From contig JAFGHL010000093.1 of the NCBI GenBank assembly GCA_016930155.1, positions 38,339 to 102,338 on the forward strand: a stretch of DNA of 64,000 bases. The letters are read 5' to 3'. The translations under genes were made by a program, and so were the position numbers. The notes beneath the pieces were generated by a model. The model ran no database searches and was not told where the DNA came from. It saw nothing but the letters and a program-made list of their open reading frames with translations. The DNA is from Dehalococcoidia bacterium (GTDB lineage: Bacteria; Chloroflexota; Dehalococcoidia; GIF9; UBA5629). Positions 3,854-16,753 of this stretch are shown here, in pieces (position 1 is the first letter of the stretch; every line of letters starts with the position of its first letter).

Positions 3854-5239
3854 ATGATAGATATATTACAGGAACTCTGCAAGATCACCGATAAAGACTA
3901 CATATCCAACAATCAAGAGGAGCTCTACCTCTACGGGCGGGACCCGGGCTTGATGCCGCCTCATGAGCCTGATTATGTTGTCATGCCGTCAACGGTTGAT
4001 GAGATACAGGCCATAGTCAGACTGGCAAACAGAGAGAAAATTCCGATTATCCCCAAAGGCGGCGGCCTTTCTCTTACAGGACTGGTTATCCCGCAAAAAG
4101 GCGGTATCCTGCTGGACATGAAGCGGATGGGGAAAATACTGGAAGTAAACGAGTCGGCAGGATATGTGATAGTGGAAGGCGGTACCACGCACGGCGCATT
4201 GAAAAGCTACCTGTTAAAGAATTATCCGCATCTTCGTCACAGCATACCTGATTCTCCCCCGATAACAACAATCACAGCGAACGCGGTAATACACGGCCAG
4301 GGGCGCCTTACGCAGCAACACGGATTCAACTCCGACATGGTCTGCGGCCTGGAGGTGGTGCTGCCCACAGGGGAAAAATGCAAAATCGGCTCCTGCGCAG
4401 TCTCGACATACTGGTTCTCCAAGGGACCGCCTCTGCCTGACCTGAGCAGCCTGTTTTTCGGCTGGTTTGGCACCACCGGCATCATCACCAAGCTGGCGCT
4501 GAGACTCTATCCCTGCAAGAAGATTCGAGATGCCATGCTTTTCCTCACCGATGAGGCTGAACTGGTGCCCGAAATCATGCGCAAACTTGGCCGCACTGAA
4601 ATGGTAGAAGACCTGGTGGTGACCGCACAGCCGATACCGCTCAGGTTCAGGGGCAATTATTATATACTTTTCTATATAACAGGCGATACTGAAGAGGAAT
4701 TGGATTTCAAAAAGAAAATGGCCTGGCGTGCGCTATGGGAATACTTCGAAAGGAGGGAAGGCGGGTTTGTTAGCCTGCCCCCTGAAATGAAAGCGCCCAT
4801 GCTGGCCATGCCTTCAAAAGACACTACCAGGTTTGCGGATGTCAGTAAAGGCGGTGGATTTGAATACAGCGGCCCTATAGCCCCCCTGGAAAAGTATCCC
4901 GCATACGTTAAAAAGCTGGCTGAACTGGCTAATAAATACGACCTTTTCTATTCATCAGCCGCCCGTATGATCGACGGCGGGCACTGCATGATGTTTTCCT
5001 TCTCTTACACTTTTAACCGGGCTGACCCGGATACGATGAAAAGGGCCAAGCAGGCGCTTGATGAAGCCGCTGATTTTGCCCTGGAAAACGGCGGGGTTAT
5101 GTGGAAACCTAATATCGATGAACAACAAATGACCATGGCTAAAATGGATCCCGAAACACTCAATTTAATGATGAAGATTAAACATTTACTGGATCCCAAC
5201 GGCATTATGAATCCCGGTAACTGGGAGGTGTCCCGATGA
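3854..5239 (+). CDS. FAD-linked oxidase (GlcD / D-lactate dehydrogenase family)
   Basis: 461 aa. N-terminal FAD-binding PCMH-type pattern (VVMPSTVDEIQAIVRLANREKIPIIPKGGGLSLTG) and the C-terminal tail typical of the family (LLDPNGIMNPG). Confidence 0.85.
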   Translation: MIDILQELCKITDKDYISNNQEELYLYGRDPGLMPPHEPDYVVMPSTVDEIQAIVRLANREKIPIIPKGGGLSLTGLVIPQKGGILLDMKRMGKILEVNESAGYVIVEGGTTHGALKSYLLKNYPHLRHSIPDSPPITTITANAVIHGQGRLTQQHGFNSDMVCGLEVVLPTGEKCKIGSCAVSTYWFSKGPPLPDLSSLFFGWFGTTGIITKLALRLYPCKKIRDAMLFLTDEAELVPEIMRKLGRTEMVEDLVVTAQPIPLRFRGNYYILFYITGDTEEELDFKKKMAWRALWEYFERREGGFVSLPPEMKAPMLAMPSKDTTRFADVSKGGGFEYSGPIAPLEKYPAYVKKLAELANKYDLFYSSAARMIDGGHCMMFSFSYTFNRADPDTMKRAKQALDEAADFALENGGVMWKPNIDEQQMTMAKMDPETLNLMMKIKHLLDPNGIMNPGNWEVSR

Positions 5240-6393
5240 AGAAATACCAGGCCCAGATTCACAGGTGCTTCAGGTGCGGTTACTGCAAATTTCCCACTGA
5301 CTACTCAGCGATAAATTGCCCGTCATATAACAGGTTCAGGTTCGATACCTATTCCACGGGCGGCAGGTTGTGGCTGACACACGCTTGGTTGAAAGGCGAG
5401 CTGCCATGGTCGGAGCACCTTGCCGAGATACTCTACGCATGTACCAACTGCAATAACTGCAGCGAGCAGTGCCCGATGAAGTTTGCTCCCGACATCGTAG
5501 AATGGATCATCGGCGCCAGGAGCGATATGGTGGAGCAGGGGAAAATCCCCGCCAGGGTCAAGCGCTTCCTTGAAGCTGTTTACAACTATGGTAACCCGTT
5601 TAAAAACCTGCGGAATGAACGCGCCGCCTGGGCAAATGGCGCCAGGCTTTATGAGAAAGGCGACGATTTCCTGCTGTATATAGGCTGCCTTGGCTCCTAT
5701 GACGAAAATGGCCAGAAAATGGCCAGAAATCTGGTCAGCTTACTGGAAACGGCAGGAATATCCTTCGGTATACTCGGCAACGATGAGGAGTGCTGCGGGA
5801 ATGAAGTATATTCGTTGGGAGAGACCGAGTTATTCAACACGCTGGCAAAAAAGAATATCGATAAATTCAGGGAATTAGATATAAAAAAGGTTATCACGCT
5901 ATGCCCGCATGGTTACAACATTATGAAGAACCGCTACCAGGACATGGGTTATACCTTCGAGGTTTATCACTTTACACAGGTACTGGACAGCCTGCTAAGA
6001 GATAAGCTGCTCAAGCCGGAGGCGGGCAGGTTAAAAGTAACATACCATGATCCCTGTTTTCTGGGCAGGCACAATAAAGTTTATGATCCCCCTCGCAGTG
6101 CCCTGCGAAGCCTGAATGGAATCGATCTCATCGAGATGGGCAGAAATAAGGCCGATGCCTTTTGTTGTGGAGGCGGCAGCGGTAATTTTGTGACCGATTA
6201 CCTGGCCGGGGGACAGGACAGCCCGGCAAGGACGCGCATAAGAGAGGCTGCGCAGTCCGGGGCAGATATTCTGGCGCTGGCCTGTCCCGGATGCATGGTG
6301 ATGTTTCAGGATGCACTGAAGGCTGAAAACCTCGAAGGCAAGCTGCAGATAAAGGATATTGCCGCAATCATCAGCGAATCACTGGCTCATTAA
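5236..6393 (+). CDS. GlcF-like Fe-S subunit with two CCG domains
   Basis: CTNCNNCSEQCP, EECCGNE and AFCCGGGSG...CPGCMVMF. ATGA start/stop overlap with the flavoprotein gene, which suggests translational coupling. Confidence 0.85.
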   Translation: MKKYQAQIHRCFRCGYCKFPTDYSAINCPSYNRFRFDTYSTGGRLWLTHAWLKGELPWSEHLAEILYACTNCNNCSEQCPMKFAPDIVEWIIGARSDMVEQGKIPARVKRFLEAVYNYGNPFKNLRNERAAWANGARLYEKGDDFLLYIGCLGSYDENGQKMARNLVSLLETAGISFGILGNDEECCGNEVYSLGETELFNTLAKKNIDKFRELDIKKVITLCPHGYNIMKNRYQDMGYTFEVYHFTQVLDSLLRDKLLKPEAGRLKVTYHDPCFLGRHNKVYDPPRSALRSLNGIDLIEMGRNKADAFCCGGGSGNFVTDYLAGGQDSPARTRIREAAQSGADILALACPGCMVMFQDALKAENLEGKLQIKDIAAIISESLAH

Positions 6394-6453
6394 CAGCCGC
6401 GAGAAACCGCATAGACCGGTTAATTGGATGAGATTGCTGCTTCCGGGTTATTA

Positions 6454-6681
6454 TTATTTCCTGATCGTGGAGATTTTAAGTAATTTATATAAGCCGCAAA
6501 ATCCGGTTATTCCTGTGATAAGTGCGATCAGGCCTAAAATGATCAGTACTATCATAGCCACCAATCCCCATGAACTCTGAAAATAGATTCCCAATCCGAT
6601 CAGGATAATTCCAAGTATTATCCTGATAACCCGGTCAACCGTGCCCTCATTCTTCTCCATAGCATCACCTTCCCTGCGCAA
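6454..6681 (-). CDS. DUF2892 (YgaP-like) small membrane protein
   Basis: 75 aa. Has VDRVIRIILGIILIGLGIY followed by a second TM helix ending CGLYKLL, the typical DUF2892 pattern. Confidence 0.7.
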   Translation of the reverse strand: MRREGDAMEKNEGTVDRVIRIILGIILIGLGIYFQSSWGLVAMIVLIILGLIALITGITGFCGLYKLLKISTIRK

Positions 6682-6726
6682 ATTCTACTATTGTCCGTAT
6701 GATTTTCAATTACAGAAGCAGGCTTT

Positions 6727-7023
6727 TCAAAACCGGCCCTGGTTGACTCTGGACCTGAGCCTCTCAATACGCCTATCGAGGCTATCTATTCTAAGCTTTA
6801 ATGCGTTAATCGACTGTGCCAAGTCTGAGCCTGAAACCGGCGCAAGTTCTGTTAAGGCTCCCCGGGGGCAGACATCGATACAGAGGCGGCAATGATTGCA
6901 TCGGTTATGGTCTATCTGAACCCCATCCCGGCTTAGAGAGATAGCTCCCGTCGAGCAGATCTGCTCACATAGCCCGCATCCCAGGCATAGGGATTTCCTG
7001 ACTTCGACTACTGTATTATTCAC
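6727..7023 (-). CDS. 2x[4Fe-4S] ferredoxin-domain protein with a C-terminal coiled-coil tail
   Basis: CLGCGLCEQIC and CNHCRLCIDVCP, then a heptad-like tail DLAQSINALKLRIDSLDRRIERLRSRV. Confidence 0.75.
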   Translation of the reverse strand: MNNTVVEVRKSLCLGCGLCEQICSTGAISLSRDGVQIDHNRCNHCRLCIDVCPRGALTELAPVSGSDLAQSINALKLRIDSLDRRIERLRSRVNQGRF

Positions 7024-7176
7024 TTTGGCTGATTACTCCTTGAACATGTTTTACCTCTGGTATGGCCAGGGCCTCAACCCGATGTAGCATGTCTCGATTT
7101 GTGATATGACATGATCTGACCTGAACATTTTCACCTGTATAAATAGTTATTTTAATAGAGCGCGAGTCACGTTACT

Positions 7177-7911
7177 TCATCTATTTGCCTGTTTCAGCAT
7201 TGTGAGCTGTTGAATTCCTTTGATCTGGCGGTAGGTAGCCCCTTCGCCCACACAGCGAAGAGCTAACTCCGAATCGATCACCCTGGTGCCGGATATGGCA
7301 TTAACACCGTAATCAAACAGAACGGGCGATAAGGGAGAAGTGTCACCAAGTATAACCACATAGGCTTTTCGACTGCACAGTTGTAAAAGCAGCTCCACCG
7401 TGTGATTGGTGAAGGCAGTGCCGGTAATGGCTACAACGTCAGCTTGCGGTATAATTTCTGCCGCCTGATCCTCTGTAAGATCACCCTCACCCGGATTTTT
7501 CTCAATAACCCAGAGCTCTTTAACAATTCCGCGCAGTTTAGGTATAAAAGGGAAGTGCCCTACAATAGCTACTCTTTTAGCTCTCCCTTCCTCAGCAATA
7601 ATATCTCGGGCATTGATGTTCAGGCAATTGTCCTCATCTATTTGCATGAGGGAGTTAATGGCAGCCATACCGATAGCCGCCTCAAGAATGCTTTGAGAAT
7701 GGGCCATCAACACCAGCTCTGATGCGCTCTTCGTCAACAACAGACCGCTGTCTTTTACAGAACCGTGTTCCTGTCGAAGCGCATCACGTGGCAGCGTCGC
7801 TGCCAGTCCGCAGTTCCTGGTAAGCACGGCGGTGTGAAACAAGCCCTGGCGTATATCTTTTACGCTCGCATCCGTATTCAAACCGGATATCAGCTCTTCA
7901 AGGATTTTCAT
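7177..7911 (-). CDS. DUF4213/DUF364 protein (putative metal-chelating Rossmann-like protein)
   Basis: 244 aa. The N-terminal DIRQGLFHTAVLTRNCGLA and central VAIVGHFPFIP patterns match my memory of DUF364 family proteins. Confidence 0.65.
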   Translation of the reverse strand: MKILEELISGLNTDASVKDIRQGLFHTAVLTRNCGLAATLPRDALRQEHGSVKDSGLLLTKSASELVLMAHSQSILEAAIGMAAINSLMQIDEDNCLNINARDIIAEEGRAKRVAIVGHFPFIPKLRGIVKELWVIEKNPGEGDLTEDQAAEIIPQADVVAITGTAFTNHTVELLLQLCSRKAYVVILGDTSPLSPVLFDYGVNAISGTRVIDSELALRCVGEGATYRQIKGIQQLTMLKQANR

Positions 7912-8063
7912 TAAGTTCTACTCCCCGCACCGGACACTATTCAGTATTTTTACCTTCTCCACTTATCCTGGCTCAGACCTGTTCATGATATTGAATAAAC
8001 CAATATGTGGCGCGAAAGATGCCCACCTATGGACAGTGTGGTTTCCTGCAGTATACCCCTGCT

Positions 8064-8091
8064 AATGTAATGAGCATATGCTCATTACATT
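8064..8091. promoter_or_regulatory. Perfect 28-nt palindrome AATGTAATGAGCATATGCTCATTACATT (operator O1)
   Basis: Read directly; each half is the exact reverse complement of the other. Shares the 16-nt core ATGAGCATATGCTCAT with the palindrome at 10150-10169. Confidence 0.8.
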
Positions 8092-8117
8092 GTAATGCCG
8101 GCAGATCAGCCTGTCAA
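8089..8117 (-). promoter_or_regulatory. Sigma70-type promoter TTGACA-17 nt-TACAAT reading toward the DUF364 gene
   Basis: On the minus strand the -35 TTGACA lies at 8117-8112, the spacer is 17 nt and the -10 TACAAT lies at 8094-8089. The -10 overlaps the outer arm of palindrome O1. Confidence 0.6.
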
Positions 8118-8178
8118 AAACGCTGCGATTTGTACCGCGGGAACCAAGTACCTGATTAATTGATGCCACACCATATTG

Positions 8179-8460
8179 TTATTCTCCGATATGTACTCGT
8201 CCCCAAATAGCCAGTGACCTTGCCAGCGAGTCGATCTCCTCCGGCTTTTTCGCCTTAGCCGCGGAAAAACAAAACCTGAAATAGTTATTTAATACCAGTG
8301 CTCCGACATTTTCAATTGCGGAACGTACGGCAGCCAACTGAGTTAATATGCTCTCACAATCACGGCCATCCTCGATCATTTTCTGCAAGCCGCGTGACTG
8401 CCCCTCGATTTTTTTGAGCCGATTAATTAACTCATCCCTGGATATCTCTTTTCTAACCAT
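8179..8460 (-). CDS. CsoR/RcnR-family (DUF156) metal- or persulfide-sensing repressor, of the CstR-like C...C type
   Basis: 93 aa. LINRLKKIEGQSRGLQKMIEDGRDCESILTQLAAVRSAIENV is the family signature. Cysteines at positions 35 and 64, with Tyr rather than His at position 60. Confidence 0.8.
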   Translation of the reverse strand: MVRKEISRDELINRLKKIEGQSRGLQKMIEDGRDCESILTQLAAVRSAIENVGALVLNNYFRFCFSAAKAKKPEEIDSLARSLAIWGRVHIGE

Positions 8461-8489
8461 AAAAACTCCGCCTTATCCTAAATACGTTT

Positions 8490-8518
8490 TTGCTTACTAT
8501 ACCCCGGTAGGGTATAAT
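8490..8518 (+). promoter_or_regulatory. Promoter TTGCTT-17 nt-TATAAT for the oxidoreductase gene
   Basis: -35 at 8490-8495 and -10 at 8513-8518, with a spacer of exactly 17 nt. Confidence 0.55.
8498..8516. promoter_or_regulatory. CsoR-type operator, inverted repeat TATACCC-5 nt-GGGTATA
   Basis: 7-nt perfect arms in the divergent csoR-like/oxidoreductase intergenic region, overlapping the spacer and the -10 of the promoter at 8490-8518. Confidence 0.65.
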
Positions 8519-8571
8519 TCCCGAAGCCCATTTATATCACTATTATATTATGAGAAGGAGCTAACTATAAA

Positions 8572-9924
8572 ATGGAGAGACACGAACTGGTTATAGTGGG
8601 AGGCAGCGCCGGTGGTATTCAGGCATCGATTTGTGCTCAGCGGCATCACGGCCTGAAAGACATCCTGGTTATACGCATTGAAGAAAAAACAATGGTTCCC
8701 TGCGGCATCCCCTATATCTATGGAACTTTAGGCGCTGTAGAGAAAAATATCATGCCCGCTTCCCTCCTCGGAGAAGCAACGCTGAAAATAGGAGAGGTCG
8801 TATCTATTGATCGCAAAGCAAAGACAGTTTCGCTTAAAGATGGTGAAAAAATAGGCTATGACAAGTTGGTTTTGGCCACTGGGTCTGATCCTATGAAACC
8901 GCCTATACCGGGCATAGATAAAAAGAATGTCTGGTTTGCCTGGAAAAATACCGACTACCTTGGAGACCTTGCACAGGCAATTGAAAATATTGGTGATATT
9001 GTTGTTATCGGCGGCGGGTTCATAGGGTTGGAATTTGCTGACGAGTGCCGCAAAAAAGGACATAAGATAACCGTGGTAGAAATGCTGGAGCATTGCTTGC
9101 AGCAGGTATGTAACTCCGACCTGTGTATCCGGGCAGAGGAAGCGCTGAAAGGAACCGGCGTGAATATTATTACTTCCAACGGAGTGAAATCGATTAACGG
9201 CAAGAGTAAAGTTGAGTCGGTAACTTTACAAAACGGAGATACTGTCAAATGCGACCTGGTGATCAACGGCATCGGTGTGATTCCCAACGTAAAACTGGCA
9301 AAAGACGCAGGGCTGGAAATCGGCCCAACGGGTAGTATCAAAGTTGATGAGTTCCAAAGAACCACTGATACCAATATCTTTGCGGTCGGCGACTGCGCCG
9401 AAAAATACTCTTTCTTCAATGGATTGCCCGTGCCTATCAGATTAGCTTCTGTAGCGACGCGAGAGGCCAAAATAGCCGCAGCCAACCTTTATCAGCCGCA
9501 ATGGCGCAATATTGGAACGATCGGCGTATTTTCAACAGTTGTAGCCAATACAGCCATGGCCATGGCAGGCTTAACCGATACCAAAGCCCGCGAGTTAGGC
9601 TATGATGTTATTGTCGGTGAAGCCCAGGCTGCTTCCAAACATCCCGGCACCATGCCCGATGCGCATCCTATGAAAGTACGTCTGGCCTTTGACCGCAGGT
9701 CAGGTAAAATACTGGGGGGCTGCGCCTGCTGTACTCAAAGCGTCGGTGAAGTAGTGAATTTAATCGCATCTGCTATAGTTAACGAAATGACCATGGAACA
9801 AATTGCCATGTTCCCCATGGGAACCCATCCATGGCTCACCGCTTCACCTCTGGTCTATCAATTTACCGATGCTGCCAGCAACGCAATTCACAATGTAAAA
9901 AATTCAGCGCGGGTACAAACATAA
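8572..9924 (+). CDS. Pyridine nucleotide-disulfide oxidoreductase of the CoA-disulfide reductase / NADH oxidase type (single active-site Cys)
   Basis: VIVGGSAGG FAD motif, the single redox Cys in TMVPCGIPY, a second dinucleotide motif VVIGGGFIGLE, and GDCA. AGGAG RBS. Confidence 0.8.
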   Translation: MERHELVIVGGSAGGIQASICAQRHHGLKDILVIRIEEKTMVPCGIPYIYGTLGAVEKNIMPASLLGEATLKIGEVVSIDRKAKTVSLKDGEKIGYDKLVLATGSDPMKPPIPGIDKKNVWFAWKNTDYLGDLAQAIENIGDIVVIGGGFIGLEFADECRKKGHKITVVEMLEHCLQQVCNSDLCIRAEEALKGTGVNIITSNGVKSINGKSKVESVTLQNGDTVKCDLVINGIGVIPNVKLAKDAGLEIGPTGSIKVDEFQRTTDTNIFAVGDCAEKYSFFNGLPVPIRLASVATREAKIAAANLYQPQWRNIGTIGVFSTVVANTAMAMAGLTDTKARELGYDVIVGEAQAASKHPGTMPDAHPMKVRLAFDRRSGKILGGCACCTQSVGEVVNLIASAIVNEMTMEQIAMFPMGTHPWLTASPLVYQFTDAASNAIHNVKNSARVQT

Positions 9925-10118
9925 TCGTTATTGCCATTAACATTTTGTGTGTCCGTCCTGATCATATGTCTGATTAAGGCAAGTAAAATCGCTGGTTTGC
10001 CGGTATTCTGATTTGTCCATGGCAGGCATCTCTTTATGCACTGCCTTCAGCAAATCAAGAATGCCCCTTGCCTGTCCGACTCTATATTCAAATCTGCTTG
10101 AAACACATTATCATCGAT

Positions 10119-10147
10119 TTGACACGGCTATTAAGTCGATCTATACT
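10119..10147 (+). promoter_or_regulatory. Sigma70-type promoter TTGACA-17 nt-TATACT for the DUF134 operon
   Basis: -35 at 10119-10124, a 17-nt spacer, and -10 at 10142-10147. Confidence 0.65.
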
Positions 10148-10149
10148 CA

Positions 10150-10169
10150 TTATGAGCATATGCTCATAA
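10150..10169. promoter_or_regulatory. Perfect 20-nt palindrome TTATGAGCATATGCTCATAA (operator O2)
   Basis: Read directly. Begins 3 nt after the -10 hexamer and ends 20 nt before the DUF134 start codon. Confidence 0.8.
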
Positions 10170-10188
10170 TAAAGAGGATAAAACTGAT

Positions 10189-10662
10189 ATGCCGAGGCCG
10201 ATAATATGCCGCCGCGTTACCTTCCTTCCGGGAGCTACTTACTTTAAACCGGCGGGAATACCCCTGCAATTCCTGCAAGAGGTGCGCCTGTCGCTTGAAG
10301 AAGCTGAGGCCATCCGGCTCAAGGACATTGAAAACATGGATCAGGAGCAGGCGTCACTTCACATGAACGTATCACGGCCTACCTACCAGCGGATATTGGA
10401 ATCGGCCAGGAAAAAGTTAGCTGATGCACTGTTGCATAGCAAGGCCATCAGGATCGAGGGCGGCAATGTCGAAATTATACCGCAGCGTTACGTTTGCGAA
10501 AACGGCCACCAGTGGGATGTGCCTCTTGAACAGGCCATGGCGGAACCGCTGCAGGCATGCCCTGTTTGCAATACCACCGCACCAGGTTTGCTGACAGAGA
10601 TTAATTTAACCCGAGGGCGCGGAAGAGGGGGCAGGTGTCATCGAGGAGGACCAAGTCGCTGA
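10189..10662 (+). CDS. DUF134 (UPF0251) predicted DNA-binding protein with a C-terminal Zn-ribbon-like segment and an RG-rich tail
   Basis: The N-terminus MPRPIICRRVTFLPGATYFKPAGIPL and LSLEEAEAIRLKDIENMDQEQASLHMNVSRPTYQRIL are the classic DUF134 pattern. CENGH...CPVC follows, and the tail is RGRGRGGRCHRGG. Confidence 0.8.
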   Translation: MPRPIICRRVTFLPGATYFKPAGIPLQFLQEVRLSLEEAEAIRLKDIENMDQEQASLHMNVSRPTYQRILESARKKLADALLHSKAIRIEGGNVEIIPQRYVCENGHQWDVPLEQAMAEPLQACPVCNTTAPGLLTEINLTRGRGRGGRCHRGGPSR

Positions 10663-10706
10663 AATGGTCGGTCAGCGTGTATTGAGAATGCAAAAGGAGG
10701 TGAACA

Positions 10707-10973
10707 ATGCCCTACGGAAGAGGCTACGGAATGAGAGGAGGTTTCAGAGGAGCCTATGCTGCGTGGCCGTATATCGGCCGCGGGCGTGGAGGCCTTCCCA
10801 GGTGCGGGTATTACTTCGATTACCCGACTTACTATATGCCCGCTTATCAGGCTGAAGCGCCCGCTACCGCAAATTATGATCTGGGCGACCTGAAAAACAC
10901 CGTGGCCACCTTGAAAGAAAGGCTGGCACGGATGCAGGCAACGATCAGCGAGATAGAACGGCAGAGGTCTTAA
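10707..10973 (+). CDS. DUF5320-like small RG/Y-rich protein with a C-terminal coiled coil
   Basis: MPYGRGYGMRGGFRG...GGLPRCGYY with the tail LKNTVATLKERLARMQATISEIERQ. AGGAGG RBS. Confidence 0.7.
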   Translation: MPYGRGYGMRGGFRGAYAAWPYIGRGRGGLPRCGYYFDYPTYYMPAYQAEAPATANYDLGDLKNTVATLKERLARMQATISEIERQRS

Positions 10974-11036
10974 CCAGCCCAAATATTTTCACTTCCCACT
11001 ATTTCCTGAAAAAATAAAACCAAAGGAGGGTTTAAA

Positions 11037-11297
11037 ATGCCAGGATTTGATGGAACCGGGCCAAGGGGTCTTGGCCCCATGACAGGTGGAGGAAGGGGTT
11101 TTTGCGTAACACCGGCAGGCAATGTCGGCGCCTACGGGCGCGGCTTTGCATCCCGCGGCTACGGACCGGCTTATGGGCCGGTTTACCAGGCGCCTGCCAA
11201 TCAGCAGGAAATCGATCAGATTAGAAACGATTTTAACCAGTTGTTAAATGAGCTTCAAAATCTGGAGGCAAGGATCAATCAAATGGAGAAACGTTAA
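11037..11297 (+). CDS. DUF5320 family protein
   Basis: Canonical N-terminus MPGFDGTGPRGLGPMTGGGRGFC and a coiled-coil tail LLNELQNLEARINQMEK. AGGAGG RBS. Confidence 0.8.
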   Translation: MPGFDGTGPRGLGPMTGGGRGFCVTPAGNVGAYGRGFASRGYGPAYGPVYQAPANQQEIDQIRNDFNQLLNELQNLEARINQMEKR

Positions 11298-11345
11298 CCC
11301 GGGTATTGCCGGACGGGCTAAATAGACAGATAAAGGGGGTAAAAC

Positions 11346-11711
11346 ATGAAATTAGCAGTGACCGCCACCGGACCCGGTCTTGATGCCGATGTCGATCCGC
11401 GCTTCGGCAGGTGCAAATACTTCATTTTCGTTAACCCGGATACGCTGGAGTTTAAAGCAGTGGATAACACACCCGCCGGTGGAGGCGCCGGGATCGCCGC
11501 AGGCCAGCTTTTGGCATCACATGGGGCACAGGTATTGCTCACCGGTGATTGTGGTCCCAATGCCTATCAGGTCCTATCGGCGGCCAATATTCAGGTGATA
11601 ACCGGCATATCCGGCAAGGTTATGGACGCGATTAATGCGTACAAAGCCGGCCAATTCAAGGCCATCAGCCAGCCCAGCGTCCAGCCTCACCACGGTTTAA
11701 CTACTAAATAA
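11346..11711 (+). CDS. NifX/NifB-C-terminal-like (dinitrogenase FeMo-cofactor binding domain) protein
   Basis: MKLAVTATG...VDPRFGRCKYFIFVN...GAQVLLTGDCGPNAYQVL is typical of COG1433 proteins. Confidence 0.8.
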   Translation: MKLAVTATGPGLDADVDPRFGRCKYFIFVNPDTLEFKAVDNTPAGGGAGIAAGQLLASHGAQVLLTGDCGPNAYQVLSAANIQVITGISGKVMDAINAYKAGQFKAISQPSVQPHHGLTTK

Positions 11712-11746
11712 TACAGAGCATTGACTATTAATAAAGGAGGTTTATC

Positions 11747-11992
11747 ATGCCCAGAGGAGATATGACAGGACCGCCAGCCGGAGGCGGCAGAGGTGGAGGT
11801 CGCGGCGCCGGCCAGGGTGGAGGAGGCAGGGGAATGAGAAGCGGCGGCAGGATGGGTGGCAACCGTCCCGGAGCAGGGCCGGGCGGAGATTGCGTTTGCC
11901 CGAGCTGCGGCGCAAGAGCGCCGCACCAGGTAGGCCAGCCCTGCTACAGCATTAAATGCCCTAAATGCGGCGCCGCCATGGCGAGAGCATAG
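11747..11992 (+). CDS. DUF5320-like G/R-rich protein with a C-terminal Zn ribbon instead of a coiled coil
   Basis: MPRGDMTGPPAGGGRGGGRGAGQGGGGRG..., then CVCPSCG...CPKCG. AGGAGG RBS. Confidence 0.7.
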   Translation: MPRGDMTGPPAGGGRGGGRGAGQGGGGRGMRSGGRMGGNRPGAGPGGDCVCPSCGARAPHQVGQPCYSIKCPKCGAAMARA

Positions 11993-12835
11993 ATGATTAT
12001 ATCGGTTGCCAGCGGCAAGGGGGGAACGGGCAAGACACTGGTTGCCACCAGCCTTGCCCTTTCCCTCGGCAATACGTGCAGGGTTCAGTTGCTCGATTGT
12101 GACGTCGAGGAGCCCAACGACCACCTGTTTATCAGGCCTGTTATTACCGACCGCGAGACGGTCTGCATACCCGTGCCGAAGGTTGACTACAACAGGTGTA
12201 CTTTTTGCGGCGACTGCGCACGAATCTGCGCCTATAAGGCCATCGCCGTAGTGCCCAAAAGCGTTCTCGTGTTTGATCAGCTCTGCCACGGCTGCGGCGC
12301 CTGCAGCTACCTCTGCCCCGAAAAGGCTATCACGGAAGAGGGGCACGAAATCGGAGTGGTTGAGTCCGGCCGGGCCAATGGCATAGCGTTCGTCCAGGGC
12401 AGGTTGACCGTCGGCGAGGCCATGGCTACGCCGGTAATACGACGGGTCAAGACCAGGATCGATCACGCCGCAACAGCCATACTGGATGTGTCACCGGGCA
12501 CCTCCTGCCCCGTGGTAGAGGCTGTGCGGGACAGCGATTACTGCCTGCTCGTTACCGAACCCACCCCCTTTGGTCTGCACGACCTTGAGCTGGCGGTGCT
12601 AACGGTCAAACAATTGGGCATTCCCTGCGGCGTGATCGTCAACCGCGCTGTACCGGGAGAAGATATGGTGCAGTCTTACTGCTCCCGTGAAAATATTCCC
12701 GTTCTGCTTGAGATACCACTGGACAGGGATATCGCTCGCCTTTATTCGAATGGACAAACTCTGGCAGAGGGCATGCCTCAGTGGCAGGACAGGTTTAAAG
12801 ACGTTTACACCAGTATTACAAGGAGCCGTACATGA
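11993..12835 (+). CDS. MinD/ParA-superfamily P-loop ATPase with an inserted 2x[4Fe-4S] ferredoxin domain (COG1149-like)
   Basis: Deviant Walker A SGKGGTGKT. CTFCGDCARIC and CHGCGACSYLCP. Confidence 0.85.
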   Translation: MIISVASGKGGTGKTLVATSLALSLGNTCRVQLLDCDVEEPNDHLFIRPVITDRETVCIPVPKVDYNRCTFCGDCARICAYKAIAVVPKSVLVFDQLCHGCGACSYLCPEKAITEEGHEIGVVESGRANGIAFVQGRLTVGEAMATPVIRRVKTRIDHAATAILDVSPGTSCPVVEAVRDSDYCLLVTEPTPFGLHDLELAVLTVKQLGIPCGVIVNRAVPGEDMVQSYCSRENIPVLLEIPLDRDIARLYSNGQTLAEGMPQWQDRFKDVYTSITRSRT

Positions 12836-13689
12836 AAGAAGTCGTTGTACTTAGCGGCAAAGGCGGAACTGGGAAGACAAGCATTACCGGCTGTTTCGCA
12901 GTCCTGGCGCGCAATAAAGTGCTGGCGGATTGCGATGTGGACGCGGCCGACCTGCATCTGTTACTCAACCCTGAGGTCAGGCGCACGGAGGAGTTCTGGA
13001 GCGGCCAAAGCGCCTGTATCGACGAAAATATCTGCAACGGCTGCGGCCTGTGCGAGGAGATATGCCGTTTCGATGCTATCAGGAACCTGAAAGTGGATCC
13101 CACCGCCTGTGAGGGTTGCGGCTTTTGCTCCCGCATCTGCCCGGTCGAGGCTATCAGCATGCTGAACAACCTTGCAGGACACTGGTATATCTCCGATACA
13201 AAGTACGGATCCCTGGTGCATGCGCGACTGGGCATAGCACAGGAGAACTCGGGCAAGCTGGTGGCGCTGGTCCGGCAGCAGGCCAGGCAGCTTGCAGAAT
13301 CAGCACAGCACACATCTATTATCACAGACGGCCCCCCGGGCATCGGCTGCCCGGTGATATCTTCACTGTCCGGCGCCGACCTGGCGCTGCTGGTGACTGA
13401 GCCGACCGTATCAGGCATCCACGACCTGGAGCGTGTCATCGATGTCTGCCGGCATTTTCAAGTGCCGGCCACAGTATGCGTTAATAAATATGACATCAAT
13501 GAGGAAAAAGCCTCTGAGATCAAGCGGTATTGCACGAACAACGGCATCCAGGTTGCCGGGGAGATACCCTTTGATACCAGTGTAAACCAGGCGGTTACAC
13601 TCGGCCTGCCGCTGGTGGAGTATAATGATGGGCCGGCGTCCCGCGCCGTCAAACAGCTCTGGAATAATTTGGAAAAGTTTTTTCAATAA
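12832..13689 (+). CDS. MinD/ParA-superfamily P-loop ATPase with an inserted ferredoxin domain (paralog)
   Basis: SGKGGTGKT, CNGCGLCEEIC and CEGCGFCSRICP. 4-nt overlap with the previous gene. Confidence 0.85.
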   Translation: MKEVVVLSGKGGTGKTSITGCFAVLARNKVLADCDVDAADLHLLLNPEVRRTEEFWSGQSACIDENICNGCGLCEEICRFDAIRNLKVDPTACEGCGFCSRICPVEAISMLNNLAGHWYISDTKYGSLVHARLGIAQENSGKLVALVRQQARQLAESAQHTSIITDGPPGIGCPVISSLSGADLALLVTEPTVSGIHDLERVIDVCRHFQVPATVCVNKYDINEEKASEIKRYCTNNGIQVAGEIPFDTSVNQAVTLGLPLVEYNDGPASRAVKQLWNNLEKFFQ

Positions 13690-13710
13690 ATTAATTTAGG
13701 GGAGCCATAT

Positions 13711-13956
13711 ATGCCTATTTATGACTATGCCTGCGCCGCCTGCGGTACCCGCTTTGAGCATATGCAATCGGGCGCGGAAATCAAAGGCCTTACCTGCCCC
13801 TCCTGCGGAAGCGGTTCCGTGAGCAAACTCATTTCCATCCCCGGTTTAATTAAAGCAGGCAGTGAACCGCGCGGGGGAAAGACTTGCTGCGGCCGGGAGG
13901 AACGCTGTGATAAGCCCCCATGCTCCAACGAGGGCAGTTGCTATCGCGGCCTTTAA
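13711..13956 (+). CDS. FmdB-family zinc-ribbon protein with a Cys-rich tail
   Basis: MPIYDYACAACGTRFE...CPSCGS is the FmdB signature. The tail is TCCGREERCDKPPCS. Confidence 0.8.
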   Translation: MPIYDYACAACGTRFEHMQSGAEIKGLTCPSCGSGSVSKLISIPGLIKAGSEPRGGKTCCGREERCDKPPCSNEGSCYRGL

Positions 13957-14052
13957 CCGTCTCACCTGAACAACAGTCTTTCATGATGATAGAATGCTGC
14001 TCTTTTATATTAAAGGCGCATAGCGATATCAAATAAACTTAGGAGATATATT

Positions 14053-14391
14053 ATGAAATTTGCCATACCGGTAAACAACGGCGTTCTATCGGCGCACTTC
14101 GGCCATTGCGAGCAATTTGCGCTGATCGAAGTTGATGAAAAAAATAAGAGCATACTTCACAAGGAATTGGTTGCCTCACCAGGGCATCAGCCGGGATTTT
14201 TGCCTCCGTGGCTGGCCAAGCAAGGTGTACAGGTGGTCATCGCCGGCGGCATGGGCGGCAGCGCCATATCTCTCTTTCAGCAAAACGGCATCAACGTACT
14301 GCTGGGAGCGCCGGCTATCGATCCTGAAAAAGTCGTGATCGACTATCTAAATGGCAACCTGGTGTCTGGCGACAACCGTTGCGACCATTAG
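14053..14391 (+). CDS. NifX/NifB-C-terminal-like cofactor-binding domain protein (paralog)
   Basis: MKFAIPV...SAHFGHCEQFALIEVD...GVQVVIAGGMG. Confidence 0.8.
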   Translation: MKFAIPVNNGVLSAHFGHCEQFALIEVDEKNKSILHKELVASPGHQPGFLPPWLAKQGVQVVIAGGMGGSAISLFQQNGINVLLGAPAIDPEKVVIDYLNGNLVSGDNRCDH

Positions 14392-14443
14392 TCTCGCTGC
14401 CAAAGAAGCACGCCCCTGAAAAAAATTAAACAGAAGGCATACA

Positions 14444-14896
14444 ATGCGCGTCAGCAGGGAAGAATATCAGCAGATACTTGAATCAGAGCTACACAAAACT
14501 TGCAGCGAGAAGACTGTAGACCATGCTCTAAAGCCAAGGAACATGGGTAGTATAGAGGTCGCCAGCGGTTACGCTTATATAACAGGCCCCTGTGGAGATA
14601 CCATGGAGATCTGGCTGAGCGTTGATAACCAGATCATAGAGCAAGCCACTTTCATAACTGATGGCTGCATAACCACCATAGCTGCAGGAAGCATGATCAC
14701 GGAGATGGCTAAAGGCAAGCCGGTGGAAGAAGCCATGCAGATCGGCCAGCAGGATATATTAAAGGCTTTAGACGGCCTGCCGGAGGAAAGCGAGCATTGT
14801 GCCCTGCTGGCGGCCAACACGCTCAAAGAAGCAATCCTGGATTATTATGAGTACAGCCGCGATAAGTGGAAACGCAATTATAAGAAACAATGGTAG
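14444..14896 (+). CDS. IscU/NifU-N-terminal-like Fe-S scaffold protein
   Basis: Three scaffold Cys in the conserved contexts GPCGDTM, DGCITT and EHCALLA. Confidence 0.8.
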   Translation: MRVSREEYQQILESELHKTCSEKTVDHALKPRNMGSIEVASGYAYITGPCGDTMEIWLSVDNQIIEQATFITDGCITTIAAGSMITEMAKGKPVEEAMQIGQQDILKALDGLPEESEHCALLAANTLKEAILDYYEYSRDKWKRNYKKQW

Positions 14897-14913
14897 CGTT
14901 TGATGTGTCGATT

Positions 14914-15038
14914 ATGTACGATCCGGTTCCATCATGGCGTTTGGGAAGGTCCCGCGGTATTGACATGGCGTACACCCGCTAAAAACCTGCTCCTTCGATT
15001 GCTTTTACTTCTCAGGTGATGCCCGGTCAAATCGTTAA
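14914..15038 (+). pseudogene. Relic of the 5' end of a radical SAM gene (frameshifted, with a degraded CxxxCxxC motif)
   Basis: MYDPVPSWRLGRSRGID at 14914-14964 matches the conserved GPVPSRRLGRSLGI N-terminus of a radical SAM family. A stop follows at 14980. A shifted frame then reads KTCSFDCFYFSG, where the third Cys of the motif is replaced by Phe, with a stop at 15036. Confidence 0.5.
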
Positions 15039-15177
15039 ATTCATCAGTGCGATCTCAAATAAGGAGGGATTTTTCCGGCTTCAAGCACGTTATTGAGCTC
15101 TACGAATCTGCAAAGGCGGTTGCACTACCACTAAATCAGCAGCAAACGAAACGCCGCAGACCGGAAGCGTATCAAAT

Positions 15178-15627
15178 ATGGACGGCATAAATCAGACATT
15201 TAATCGCAGGGAAATCCGCATTAACGACCTTTCTGCGTTTGTCTGCTTTTCACACATAGAGTACAATTCGATAATGCCGATGTCCATCCTGAGCGACTCT
15301 ATCGGCAAAATTAAGCAGGTGACGGTAACTGAAATGGAAAGGATCAACCTTGAGCCCAGTTATACTTCTAACGAGGTGCCGGGCAAGTGCTTGAAGTGCC
15401 TGGCGGAGAAAGAGCTGAACAACTGCCTTTTCGCGTTGCTCAGTGAGCAATCCAGCGATGAGGAACTGCAACAACGCTATGAGGCGCTGCTCTCACTGCT
15501 GCAATCTCCCGACTTTGAAATGTTGCGGAGCAAGGTTGAGAGACTGCTGTCCGAAGGCAAGCAGGTCAGGGTGAAGGTAGACCATGATGATGCAGGCAAC
15601 CTGCAGTATAAACTGATTATTGATTGA
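15178..15627 (+). CDS. Hypothetical protein whose C-terminal ~65 aa are paralogous to ORF 17177-17449 (start codon uncertain)
   Basis: ORF track. The C-terminus LLSEQSSDEELQQRYEALLSLLQSPDFEMLRSKVERLLSEGKQVRVKV aligns with MLSDAAGNEQLNQRLELLTIVLKEIDFKHLRLESEKYMVQGKKVKVIF. No clear RBS at any of the candidate ATGs. Confidence 0.45.
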   Translation: MDGINQTFNRREIRINDLSAFVCFSHIEYNSIMPMSILSDSIGKIKQVTVTEMERINLEPSYTSNEVPGKCLKCLAEKELNNCLFALLSEQSSDEELQQRYEALLSLLQSPDFEMLRSKVERLLSEGKQVRVKVDHDDAGNLQYKLIID

Positions 15628-15736
15628 AACAGGGCTAATAGAGTGAGAATGCATTCGTAGTATTTGCGGGGAGTAAGCTATCCAACCCACTAGACTGCTT
15701 ACATTGAACAAAATCATACATTGAGGAGAAAACGAT

Positions 15737-16753
15737 ATGATAACTGCGGAACAAGTAAAGGACAGGCTCGATGAGGTCATCATTCCTCACGTTATACGTA
15801 GCCTGACTTTAATGAATCTGATACGTGATATCACAATAACTGATGACTCGGTAAAAATCGCTCTGGCTTCAGCCGGACTGGATGAATATTCGCAGAAATG
15901 GATTACAGAAAAAATCGAAGAATCTTTGAAAGGCCTGCACGATATAAAAAACATCAGCATCGACTATATTGATTCCAAACCCCTTGATTTAAATAAAGTC
16001 GGCAGTGTAATAGCCGTAATGAGTGGCAAAGGCGGTGTAGGCAAGTCGCTGGTCAGCAGCATCACAGCCGTCGCACTGAGAAGGGAGGGATTTGAAGTCG
16101 GGATACTCGATGCTGATATTACCGGCGCCAGTATACCAAAGATGTTCGGTATAACGGAGCGGCCTGGAGGAAACGAGAGCGGCATATTGCCGGTAACGTC
16201 CAAATCAGGTATTGAGATCATGTCGATTAATCTTCTATTGCCCAGCGAAGATGAAGCTGTCATATGGCGCGGTCCGCTTATAGGCAAGGCCATCACGCAA
16301 TTCTGGGAAGAAGTTCTCTGGGGCCGTCTGGACTATTTAATTGTCGACCTGCCACCCGGCACTGCCGATGCCCCGCTTACCGTAATGCAATCACTGCCGA
16401 TCTCGGGTGTTATAGTCGTGTTTACGCCGCAGGATTTGACGGCTATGATCGTGAGGAAGGCGGTTAAGATGGCCAGGCAGATGAATAAAAAGATACTGGG
16501 TGTCGTCGAGAATATGAGCTACCTTTACGTCAAGGAGATCGATAAGAAAATTGAGCTTTTCGGAAAAAGCAGGGGAGAAGAAATGGCAACAGAGGCGGGG
16601 GCGCCGTTGCTGGGGAAAATACCGGTTGATCCCGATTTGGCCGCCCTTTGCGACGCCGGGCATATCGAGCAATACCAATCCGATCTCGTTGAGCAAATAG
16701 GCAAGTCGCTTCTGTCGTCACTCTCCTTGAAATCTTCCGAAACCGGGAGATAA
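15737..16753 (+). CDS. apbC: Mrp/NBP35 (ApbC) Fe-S cluster carrier ATPase with an N-terminal DUF59 domain
   Basis: VMSGKGGVGKS Walker A, DLPPGT, and the Mrp signature region VVENMSY. The N-terminal ~80 aa are DUF59-like. Confidence 0.85.
   Translation: MITAEQVKDRLDEVIIPHVIRSLTLMNLIRDITITDDSVKIALASAGLDEYSQKWITEKIEESLKGLHDIKNISIDYIDSKPLDLNKVGSVIAVMSGKGGVGKSLVSSITAVALRREGFEVGILDADITGASIPKMFGITERPGGNESGILPVTSKSGIEIMSINLLLPSEDEAVIWRGPLIGKAITQFWEEVLWGRLDYLIVDLPPGTADAPLTVMQSLPISGVIVVFTPQDLTAMIVRKAVKMARQMNKKILGVVENMSYLYVKEIDKKIELFGKSRGEEMATEAGAPLLGKIPVDPDLAALCDAGHIEQYQSDLVEQIGKSLLSSLSLKSSETGR

Follow-up and report, generated by a model that had tools for sequence, protein, structure and literature searches.

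We have identified a 20-bp palindrome, TTATGAGCATATGCTCATAA, as the probable operator of a DUF134 (UPF0251) protein encoded by a Dehalococcoidia bacterium of the phylum Chloroflexota. The palindrome occurs twice, as O1 and O2, in a 64,000-nucleotide stretch of the genome (GenBank assembly GCA_016930155.1, contig JAFGHL010000093.1, positions 38,339 to 102,338; hereafter the window, whose own coordinates are used throughout). O2 precedes the DUF134 gene and its operon, and O1 precedes a divergent unit that begins with a DUF364 gene. Our computational analysis, which drew on some 200 other genomes and metagenomes, places both sites at near-consensus promoters with a recurrent geometry, links the palindrome to DUF134 genes across phyla, and reveals covariation between one operator base and one residue of the protein. 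From these observations we infer that DUF134 binds as a dimer, represses rather than activates, and responds to a signal.

Palindromes and promoters in the window

O1 (8064..8091, strandless) is a perfect 28-nt palindrome, AATGTAATGAGCATATGCTCATTACATT, both by direct reading and by an inverted-repeat finder, which returned arms at 8064-8077 and 8078-8091 with 100% complementarity and zero gap. Its functional core, judged from the sequence, is the 20-bp site TAATGAGCATATGCTCATTA at 8068-8087. O2 (10150..10169, strandless) reads directly as a perfect 20-nt palindrome and is the exact family consensus; it scores 35.9 bits against the weight matrix described below, and O1 scores 30.5 bits. The two have in common the 16-mer ATGAGCATATGCTCAT, located at 8070-8085 and 10152-10167, which sits 2-4 nt past the -10 hexamer at both promoters. 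Both palindromes are therefore as the original prediction, made from sequence alone, had described them, and its claim that the window holds no third full copy also stands: the 64-kb window contains no further copy of the 16-mer at ≤3 mismatches, and a weight matrix from 63 independent sites reaches ≥8 bits at O1 and O2 only.

With uniform base composition, two exact copies of the 16-mer per 64 kb would be expected about 3e-5 times by arithmetic, and the copies occupy the same place in both near-consensus promoters; chance is thus excluded for the pair. We also considered an origin by recent duplication of one promoter, which was ruled out by eye because the sequences of the two 17-nt spacers differ. 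That O1 and O2 are real operator sites is, in our assessment, largely supported.

The predicted sigma-70 promoter of the DUF364 unit (8089..8117, minus strand) consists of TTGACA at 8117-8112, a 17-nt spacer and TACAAT at 8094-8089. The DUF134 operon has a predicted sigma-70 promoter at 10119..10147 (plus strand), with TTGACA at 10119-10124, a 17-nt spacer and TATACT at 10142-10147. Each matches the consensus at 11/12 positions, and a promoter scan of 6500-11500 ranked exactly these two highest, in agreement with the earlier description of both as near-consensus promoters at these positions. The centre of O1 lies 11 nt from the end of its -10 and that of O2 12 nt from its own; the O1 palindrome shares 3 nt with its -10 hexamer and O2 begins 2 nt past its own, so that both do start at or within 3 nt of the -10, as had been noted. 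O2 ends 19 nt before the DUF134 ATG (10189), and this gap includes an AAGAGGA ribosome-binding site. Additionally, terminator-like hairpins lie directly 5' of both promoters (8138-8125, minus strand; 9991-10004, plus strand), so the two units look insulated from their neighbours.

Centred 11-12 nt past the -10, the 20-bp site spans roughly -5 to +15 of the predicted promoter, with the expected start inside the left arm. DUF134 bound there would block RNA polymerase.

Association with DUF134 across phyla

An exact scan for the 16-mer in one genome per species (596 Gb) gave at least 119 loci. Among the 119 matches listed, tblastn with the window proteins located 64 sites 14-80 nt upstream of a DUF134 start, and four more precede NifX-like, MinD-ferredoxin or zinc-ribbon genes. 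Judged by record titles, the 64 DUF134-linked sites span at least about 16 phylum-level lineages, among them Dehalococcoidia (Chloroflexota), Ignavibacteriota, Bacteroidota, Planctomycetota, Zixibacteria, Sumerlaeota, Caldisericota, Spirochaetota, Omnitrophota, Desulfobacterota, Verrucomicrobiota, Acidobacteriota, Aminicenantes, Bacillota and Myxococcota. As a random site has a chance of only about 1e-5 of landing 80 nt or less from a given gene, the association between site and DUF134 is not due to chance.

A sample independent of the motif consisted of 80 metagenome loci, 79 of them scored, fetched with a DUF134 protein profile from an alignment of 33 N-terminal domains (A1); it is biased towards relatives of the window DUF134. 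Within 200 nt upstream of the gene, the closest 16-mer was an exact copy in 19 loci and differed at 1 position in 9, at 2 in 11, at 3 in 8 and at 4 in 13, which places 47/79 at ≤3 mismatches. Two further protein-selected DUF134 genes from a different clade, traced to their contigs, both have the site. Most operator variants change both arms alike, as in ATGGACATATGTCCAT and ATGGGCATATGCCCAT, and the symmetrised weight matrix from 63 sites describes a 20-bp palindrome with the half-sites TTATGRRCAT and ATGYYCATAA. This matrix found 187 sites of ≥18 bits in 199 loci (1.3 Mb), versus 0 in shuffled sequence. DUF134 follows 134 of the 187 and is the sole gene family adjoining the site in all 134 of these high-scoring loci; in two loci (L181, L198) DUF134 closes the operon, yet the operator is still found at its start. 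The counts from the genome scan, the protein-selected sample and the matrix all bear out the proposal of a palindromic operator tied to DUF134, with this protein as its candidate autoregulator.

The geometry seen in the window also recurs. A sigma-70 promoter matching the consensus at ≥9/12 positions occurs within 70 nt of 92/133 operators that lie upstream of DUF134 (random control positions, 9/172), and in 69 of these 92 promoter-bearing loci the palindrome centre lies 12-13 nt past the end of the -10. The window-like layout, with the operator after the -10, is present in 54/85 homologous loci. In a second class (L200-L203, L048, L074, L075, L108 and others) the palindrome is within a 16-18-nt spacer between -35 and -10, and its CATAAT arm is itself the -10. 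Both positions would block RNA polymerase. The earlier claim was that the palindrome covers the expected transcription start; in the loci with the common 12-13-nt spacing and in this spacer class alike, it overlaps the predicted core promoter. Some loci (L151, L158-L160, L162, L164, L169, L171, L174, L177, L184) have two palindromes in tandem before DUF134, spaced 28-41 nt from centre to centre, of which the second is more degenerate and located in the leader; this arrangement suggests cooperative binding and repression or a roadblock. Overall, the operator geometry argues for repression and disfavours an RNA element.

Covariation between protein and operator

Of all protein columns, that of residue 67, which lies in the recognition helix, predicts operator positions 4-5 best. 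In the protein-selected set, Q/G at residue 67 is paired with G/G at half-site position 5 in 31 loci and never with A/A, and H at residue 67 with A/A in 16 loci and never with G/G (Fisher p = 7e-13, uncorrected for phylogeny). An A at residue 67 tends to accompany T at half-site position 5. The window itself pairs Q67 with ATGAGCAT, which has G at position 5. Proteins of the H and Q classes are interleaved (mean identity 0.75 within H and 0.70 between H and Q), and nearest neighbours can be up to 85% identical yet belong to different operator classes. Thus, the operator switch tracks residue 67 and not overall divergence, and we propose that Q67-type proteins may prefer ATGAGCAT and H67-type proteins ATGAACAT.

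These observations fit a model in which a DUF134 dimer would place one helix-turn-helix on each half-site, TTATGAGCAT, with Q67 of the recognition helix reading the G at half-site position 5.

The DUF134 protein

The DUF134 gene (10189-10662, plus strand) encodes a 157-aa candidate repressor that matches Pfam PF02001 at residues 3-96 (76.6 bits, cutoff 27). All source-named homologues (2421/2421) are called DUF134 or UPF0251, with names such as 'DUF134 domain-containing' and 'predicted DNA-binding protein'. The family comprises 3775 clusters at 50% identity with E ≤ 1e-3 and 1653 with E ≤ 1e-10; the window has no second member. A weak Pfam match to Sigma70_r4_2 (23.2 bits) falls under the 25.7 cutoff, and in an AlphaFold2 model the helix-turn-helix resembles that of sigma-70 region 4 (helices 36-47, 52-58 and 63-82, pLDDT 85-94). 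The protein also has an N-terminal beta arm and an Arg/Gly-rich C-terminal tail. We found no full-length structural analogue of DUF134: matches were confined to the helix-turn-helix, and none had a Foldseek E < 1e-3.

The recognition motif of the window protein is S62-R63-P-T65-Y-Q67-R68. S62, R63, T65 and R68 are invariant in alignment A1; in an alignment of closer relatives (A2), S62, T65, Q67 and R68 never vary and R63 hardly does. A C-terminal Cys3His ribbon (C103, H107, C124, C127), which a newer Pfam model names MJ0401, is invariant in A2 and characterizes the subfamily of the window protein. Elsewhere in the family the helix-turn-helix is followed by four cysteines, by a NifX-like domain or by nothing, and no cysteine is conserved family-wide in A1. 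A constant DNA-binding domain joined to variable C-terminal modules suggests that sensing takes place outside the helix-turn-helix. Seven DUF134 proteins (L017, L053, L060, L064, L066, L077, L086) are fused to a NifX-like (Nitro_FeMo-Co) domain.

The Arg/Gly-rich, RGG-like character of the DUF134 tail (10597-10662) is also seen in the N-terminal parts of both DUF5320 proteins encoded downstream (10707-10790 and 11037-11150). DUF134 and DUF5320 proteins of Methanosarcina mazei have been flagged for a putative G-quadruplex-binding motif (PMC7565180).

Gene order and proposed regulon

Pfam matches confirm the gene labels given before (DUF364, ferredoxin, DUF2892 and DUF134). On the minus strand, the O1 unit (6454..7911) encodes a DUF364+DUF4213 protein (7177-7911), a 4Fe-4S ferredoxin (6727-7023) and a YgaP-like/DUF2892 membrane protein (6454-6681), and we propose that O1 controls these three genes. 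On the plus strand, O2 and DUF134 are followed by two DUF5320 genes (10707-10973, 11037-11297), a NifX-like (Nitro_FeMo-Co) gene (11346-11711), an 81-aa open reading frame (ORF) with no Pfam match (11747-11992), two MinD/CbiA ATPases with ferredoxin inserts (CbiA/ParA + Fer4; 11993-12835, 12832-13689), an FmdB zinc ribbon (13711-13956), a second NifX-like (Nitro_FeMo-Co) gene (14053-14391), NifU_N (14444-14896), a 149-aa protein of unknown kind (15178-15627) and Mrp/NBP35 (ParA/NUBPL + FeS_assembly_P; 15737-16753). No plus-strand terminator-like site occurs downstream of DUF134 before 18420. In our model, O2 would control this DUF134 operon, including its DUF5320, NifX-like, MinD-ferredoxin, zinc-ribbon, NifU and Mrp genes. 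A promoter-like TTGACT-16-TATCAT (10/12) without an operator lies inside the operon at 11721-11748, preceding the 81-aa ORF and the MinD-ferredoxin genes.

The canonical order in Dehalococcoidia-like relatives is operator, DUF134, (DUF364), DUF5320, NifX, two MinD-ferredoxin, zinc ribbon, unknown protein, NifX, Mrp and NifU, with DUF364 directly after DUF134 within one operon. In the window, DUF364, the ferredoxin and DUF2892 have shifted to a divergent unit with its own promoter and operator, and the place of DUF364 inside the DUF134 operon of relatives explains why the separate unit has its own operator copy. The idea of a small regulon joining the two divergent halves of the region is supported by the site shared by O1 and O2 and by this gene order in relatives. 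In locus L125, homologues of the left-hand neighbours in the window (an FAD oxidase and a CCG protein) adjoin the operator directly, and in L197 a 72%-identical CoA-disulfide-reductase homologue lies directly upstream of it.

Sites that are not linked to DUF134 precede NifX-like genes, DUF5320, Mrp, MinD-ferredoxin and FmdB-ribbon genes, as well as genes for DUF59 Fe-S assembly, RACo-like and ModA/WtpA-type binding proteins. Of the 54 loci whose length allows a judgement, 47 (87%) have a NifX-like gene ≤3.5 kb downstream on the same strand. The NifX-like protein is thus the most constant partner of DUF134, and a candidate sensor or co-regulator.

Genes for an ABC transporter, MobB and MoeA adjoin DUF134-NifX and are divergent from it in L201-L203 (1-3870). 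In L099 a high-scoring site at 577 precedes an SBP_bac_11 (ModA/WtpA-type) gene. These molybdenum-related neighbours (L201, L099) are isolated cases that hint at a molybdenum connection.

Alternative explanations

DUF134 could bind the palindrome but act as an activator, a dual regulator or a factor contacting RNA polymerase, which we consider unlikely. The rigid 12-13-nt spacing to the -10 across phyla is more typical of elements that act with RNA polymerase, and the DUF134 fold matches sigma region 4. However, the palindrome is placed over the predicted start or occupies a spacer of the optimal 17 nt. Known activators have their sites upstream of the -35 or overlapping it, and those of the MerR type require 19-20 nt between the hexamers; with 17 nt in the window and 16-18 nt in homologous loci, the spacers here lack the over-long length (19-20 bp) of that type. 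Both window promoters, at 11/12, should need no activation, and the second operator found 28-41 nt downstream in some loci fits a roadblock or cooperative repression.

Another transcription factor from outside the window, for example of the ArsR/SmtB type, might bind the palindrome, with DUF134 merely co-regulated. The identical 16-mer core lies 15-33 nt upstream of ArsR-family (HTH_5) genes in L020, L065, L081, L085 and L087 (and L101), in genomes of Bacillaceae, Opitutaceae, Acidobacteriota and Burkholderiales, and ArsR-type proteins thus appear able to use ATGAGCATATGCTCAT. The flanks of these ArsR-linked copies, however, are mostly ATAT and not TTAT...ATAA (although ATAT flanks also stand before a DUF5320 gene in L076), and the window is without an ArsR homologue (tblastn with five ArsR proteins, none below E = 0.1). 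As DUF134 is the only family that adjoins the 134 high-scoring sites, in about 16 phylum-level lineages, and its recognition-helix residue covaries with an operator base, such an outside factor seems quite improbable. There is still less to recommend an RNA hairpin at the 5' end of the transcript, acting through stability or protein binding, to which we attach very little credence. The palindrome is self-complementary, and symmetric two-arm variants such as ATGGACATATGTCCAT would also preserve a hairpin, but the predicted start lies within the left arm (the -10 ends 11-12 nt before the centre), which would leave the hairpin incomplete. In the spacer class, the palindrome belongs to the -35 to -10 stretch and is never transcribed, which disposes of the hairpin idea. 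The sequence itself, beyond its pairing, is conserved across phyla; Rfam at gathering thresholds gave no match in the whole window, and the folding of the 178-nt O1 leader is unremarkable against shuffled sequence (z-score 0.40).

Several points weigh against DUF134 as the repressor acting at this operator. By arithmetic, about 140 chance matches to the 16-mer are expected in 596 Gb, and about 45-50 of the listed 119 matches are thus plausibly unrelated. About one-fifth of the protein-selected DUF134 loci have no recognisable site within 200 nt. At least five unrelated genomes have the same core in front of ArsR-family genes, so the sequence is not exclusive to DUF134, and the covariation statistic carries the phylogenetic caveat given above. 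On the protein side, the AlphaFold2 model reaches high confidence in the helix-turn-helix core only (overall pLDDT 67.7), the family shows no conserved residue that would suggest a sensor, and short forms with only the helix-turn-helix occur. Weighing these points against the linkage, geometry and covariation, we retain DUF134 as the probable repressor at O1 and O2.

Relation to known systems

The gene set downstream of O2, to which the proposed regulon adds the DUF364 unit, resembles the orange-protein (ORP) cluster of Desulfovibrio, with its MinD-ferredoxin proteins (Orp3/4), NifX-like 'Di-Nase' proteins (Orp5/8) and Mrp-type carrier, MrpORP (PMC6345978). As in the ORP system of D. vulgaris Hildenborough (PMC8359166, PMC3897727, PMC6345978), the window encodes MinD ATPases with two [4Fe-4S] motifs, NifX-like proteins and Mrp/NBP35, and is arranged as two divergent units with one regulator whose gene is at the locus. 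Pfam thus identifies both the Orp3/4-type MinD with two ferredoxin motifs and the Orp5/8-type Nitro_FeMo-Co protein that mark an ORP cluster. The fusion typical of MrpORP is absent, as the protein encoded at 15737-16753 is without a Nitro_FeMo-Co domain by Pfam, with no NCBIfam scan of that protein; the NifX-like and MinD-type proteins of the window match the NCBIfam MrpORP model partially and far below its cutoff.

Desulfovibrio orp operons are turned on only at low redox potential by OrpR, a sigma-54 enhancer-binding activator with an Fe-S PAS sensor that acts through its Fe-S cluster (PMC8359166). OrpR is reported to be restricted to delta-Proteobacteria (PMC8359166), so that ORP regulation elsewhere is undescribed. 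Unlike the OrpR system, the window has sigma-70-like promoters and a small DUF134 regulator, and the position of the sites would imply repression. No enhancer-binding-protein gene was found by Pfam among the genes at 3854-16753, and no search was aimed at the sigma-54 -24/-12 motif.

The closest solved relative of the DUF134 helix-turn-helix is the DNA-binding domain of Bacillus subtilis DeoR, of the SorC family (PDB 7bhy and 8r7y, operator-bound). It superposes on 7bhy at 0.7 Å over 40 residues with 38% identity (Foldseek; profile E-value 1.9e-6), and the recognition motif iSRpT-x-R is common to both. The similarity is limited to these approximately 40 residues: DeoR has a C-terminal SorC sugar-phosphate-binding domain, whereas Pfam detects only DUF134 and Sigma70_r4_2 in the window protein. 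The same three-helix unit is found in region 4 of extracytoplasmic function (ECF) sigma factors and in LuxR-GerE proteins (Foldseek 0.5-0.9 Å to 2h27, 3hug and 6dxo; GerE 1fse also matches). Unlike ECF sigma factors, DUF134 has no sigma region 2, and its target is a palindrome downstream of the -10 and not a -35 element. Like the candidate repressor DUF134, the autoregulated metal sensors of the ArsR/SmtB family are small and have a palindrome, perfect or imperfect, over their own promoter, and the ATGAGCATATGCTCAT core stands before at least five ArsR genes; the ArsR/SmtB fold, however, is the winged helix HTH_5, for which DUF134 has no Pfam match.

Possible signal and significance

The original prediction offered metal, sulfide or redox state as the signal, which was a guess. 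The NifX-like cluster-binding partner points towards a metal-sulfur cluster, and our best guess, by analogy with OrpR, is that the signal may be the loading or redox state of such a cluster, which could be sensed through the C-terminal Cys3His ribbon, the NifX-like partner or both. In a bolder and more doubtful version, DUF134 would be an ancestral, cross-phylum master repressor of the ORP/NifX-like metal-cluster system that reads base 5 with residue 67 and senses the cluster (Fe-S or Mo-S) through the sometimes-fused NifX-like partner and not its own DNA-binding domain. If this were true, DUF134 and its NifX-like partner would form a metallocluster switch made of two proteins, a type without a described precedent.

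The full-text literature, with RegPrecise and subscription papers beyond our scope, yielded no description of DUF134 function or of the motif, and NCBIfam lists DUF134 only as 'hypothetical protein'. The mechanism itself, a small autoregulated helix-turn-helix repressor with a palindromic operator, is classical; what is new is its assignment to DUF134. The 20-bp operator, the promoter geometry and the specificity-determining residue make the uncharacterised DUF134/UPF0251 family a testable transcription factor, and they define a regulon that comprises NifX-like proteins, MinD-ferredoxin ATPases, DUF5320, Mrp, NifU and DUF364. The DUF134-linked metal-cluster gene set occurs in many anaerobic bacteria, and an identical 16-mer kept across about 16 phylum-level lineages represents unusually strong conservation for a bacterial operator. 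The operator could be used to find regulon members in uncultured anaerobes such as Dehalococcoidia, to seek the inducing signal and to build reporters.

Other features between the operators

O1 and O2 are separated by an unrelated module of two divergent genes, one for a CsoR/RcnR-family repressor (8179-8460, minus strand) and one for a CoA-disulfide-reductase-like flavoprotein (8572-9924, plus strand). With C35, Y60 and C64 but without the histidine usual in such proteins, the repressor resembles CstR, a persulfide sensor with two cysteines. An inverted repeat of the form 7-5-7, TATACCC-N5-GGGTATA (8498-8516), lies between the two genes, overlaps a TATAAT at 8513-8518 and is probably the repressor's own operator. 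The left half of this repeat (8498-8505) recurs as TATACCCC at 8052-8059, in the DUF364 leader directly downstream of O1; as a CsoR-like box this copy was rejected, the window having 3 matches where 1.46 are expected, which is not significant. Homologues of the CoA-disulfide reductase recur beside DUF134 loci (L197, L007, L086 and L200), and that of L200 (5377-7086) has a rhodanese domain and lies downstream of DUF134, NifX and zinc-ribbon genes.

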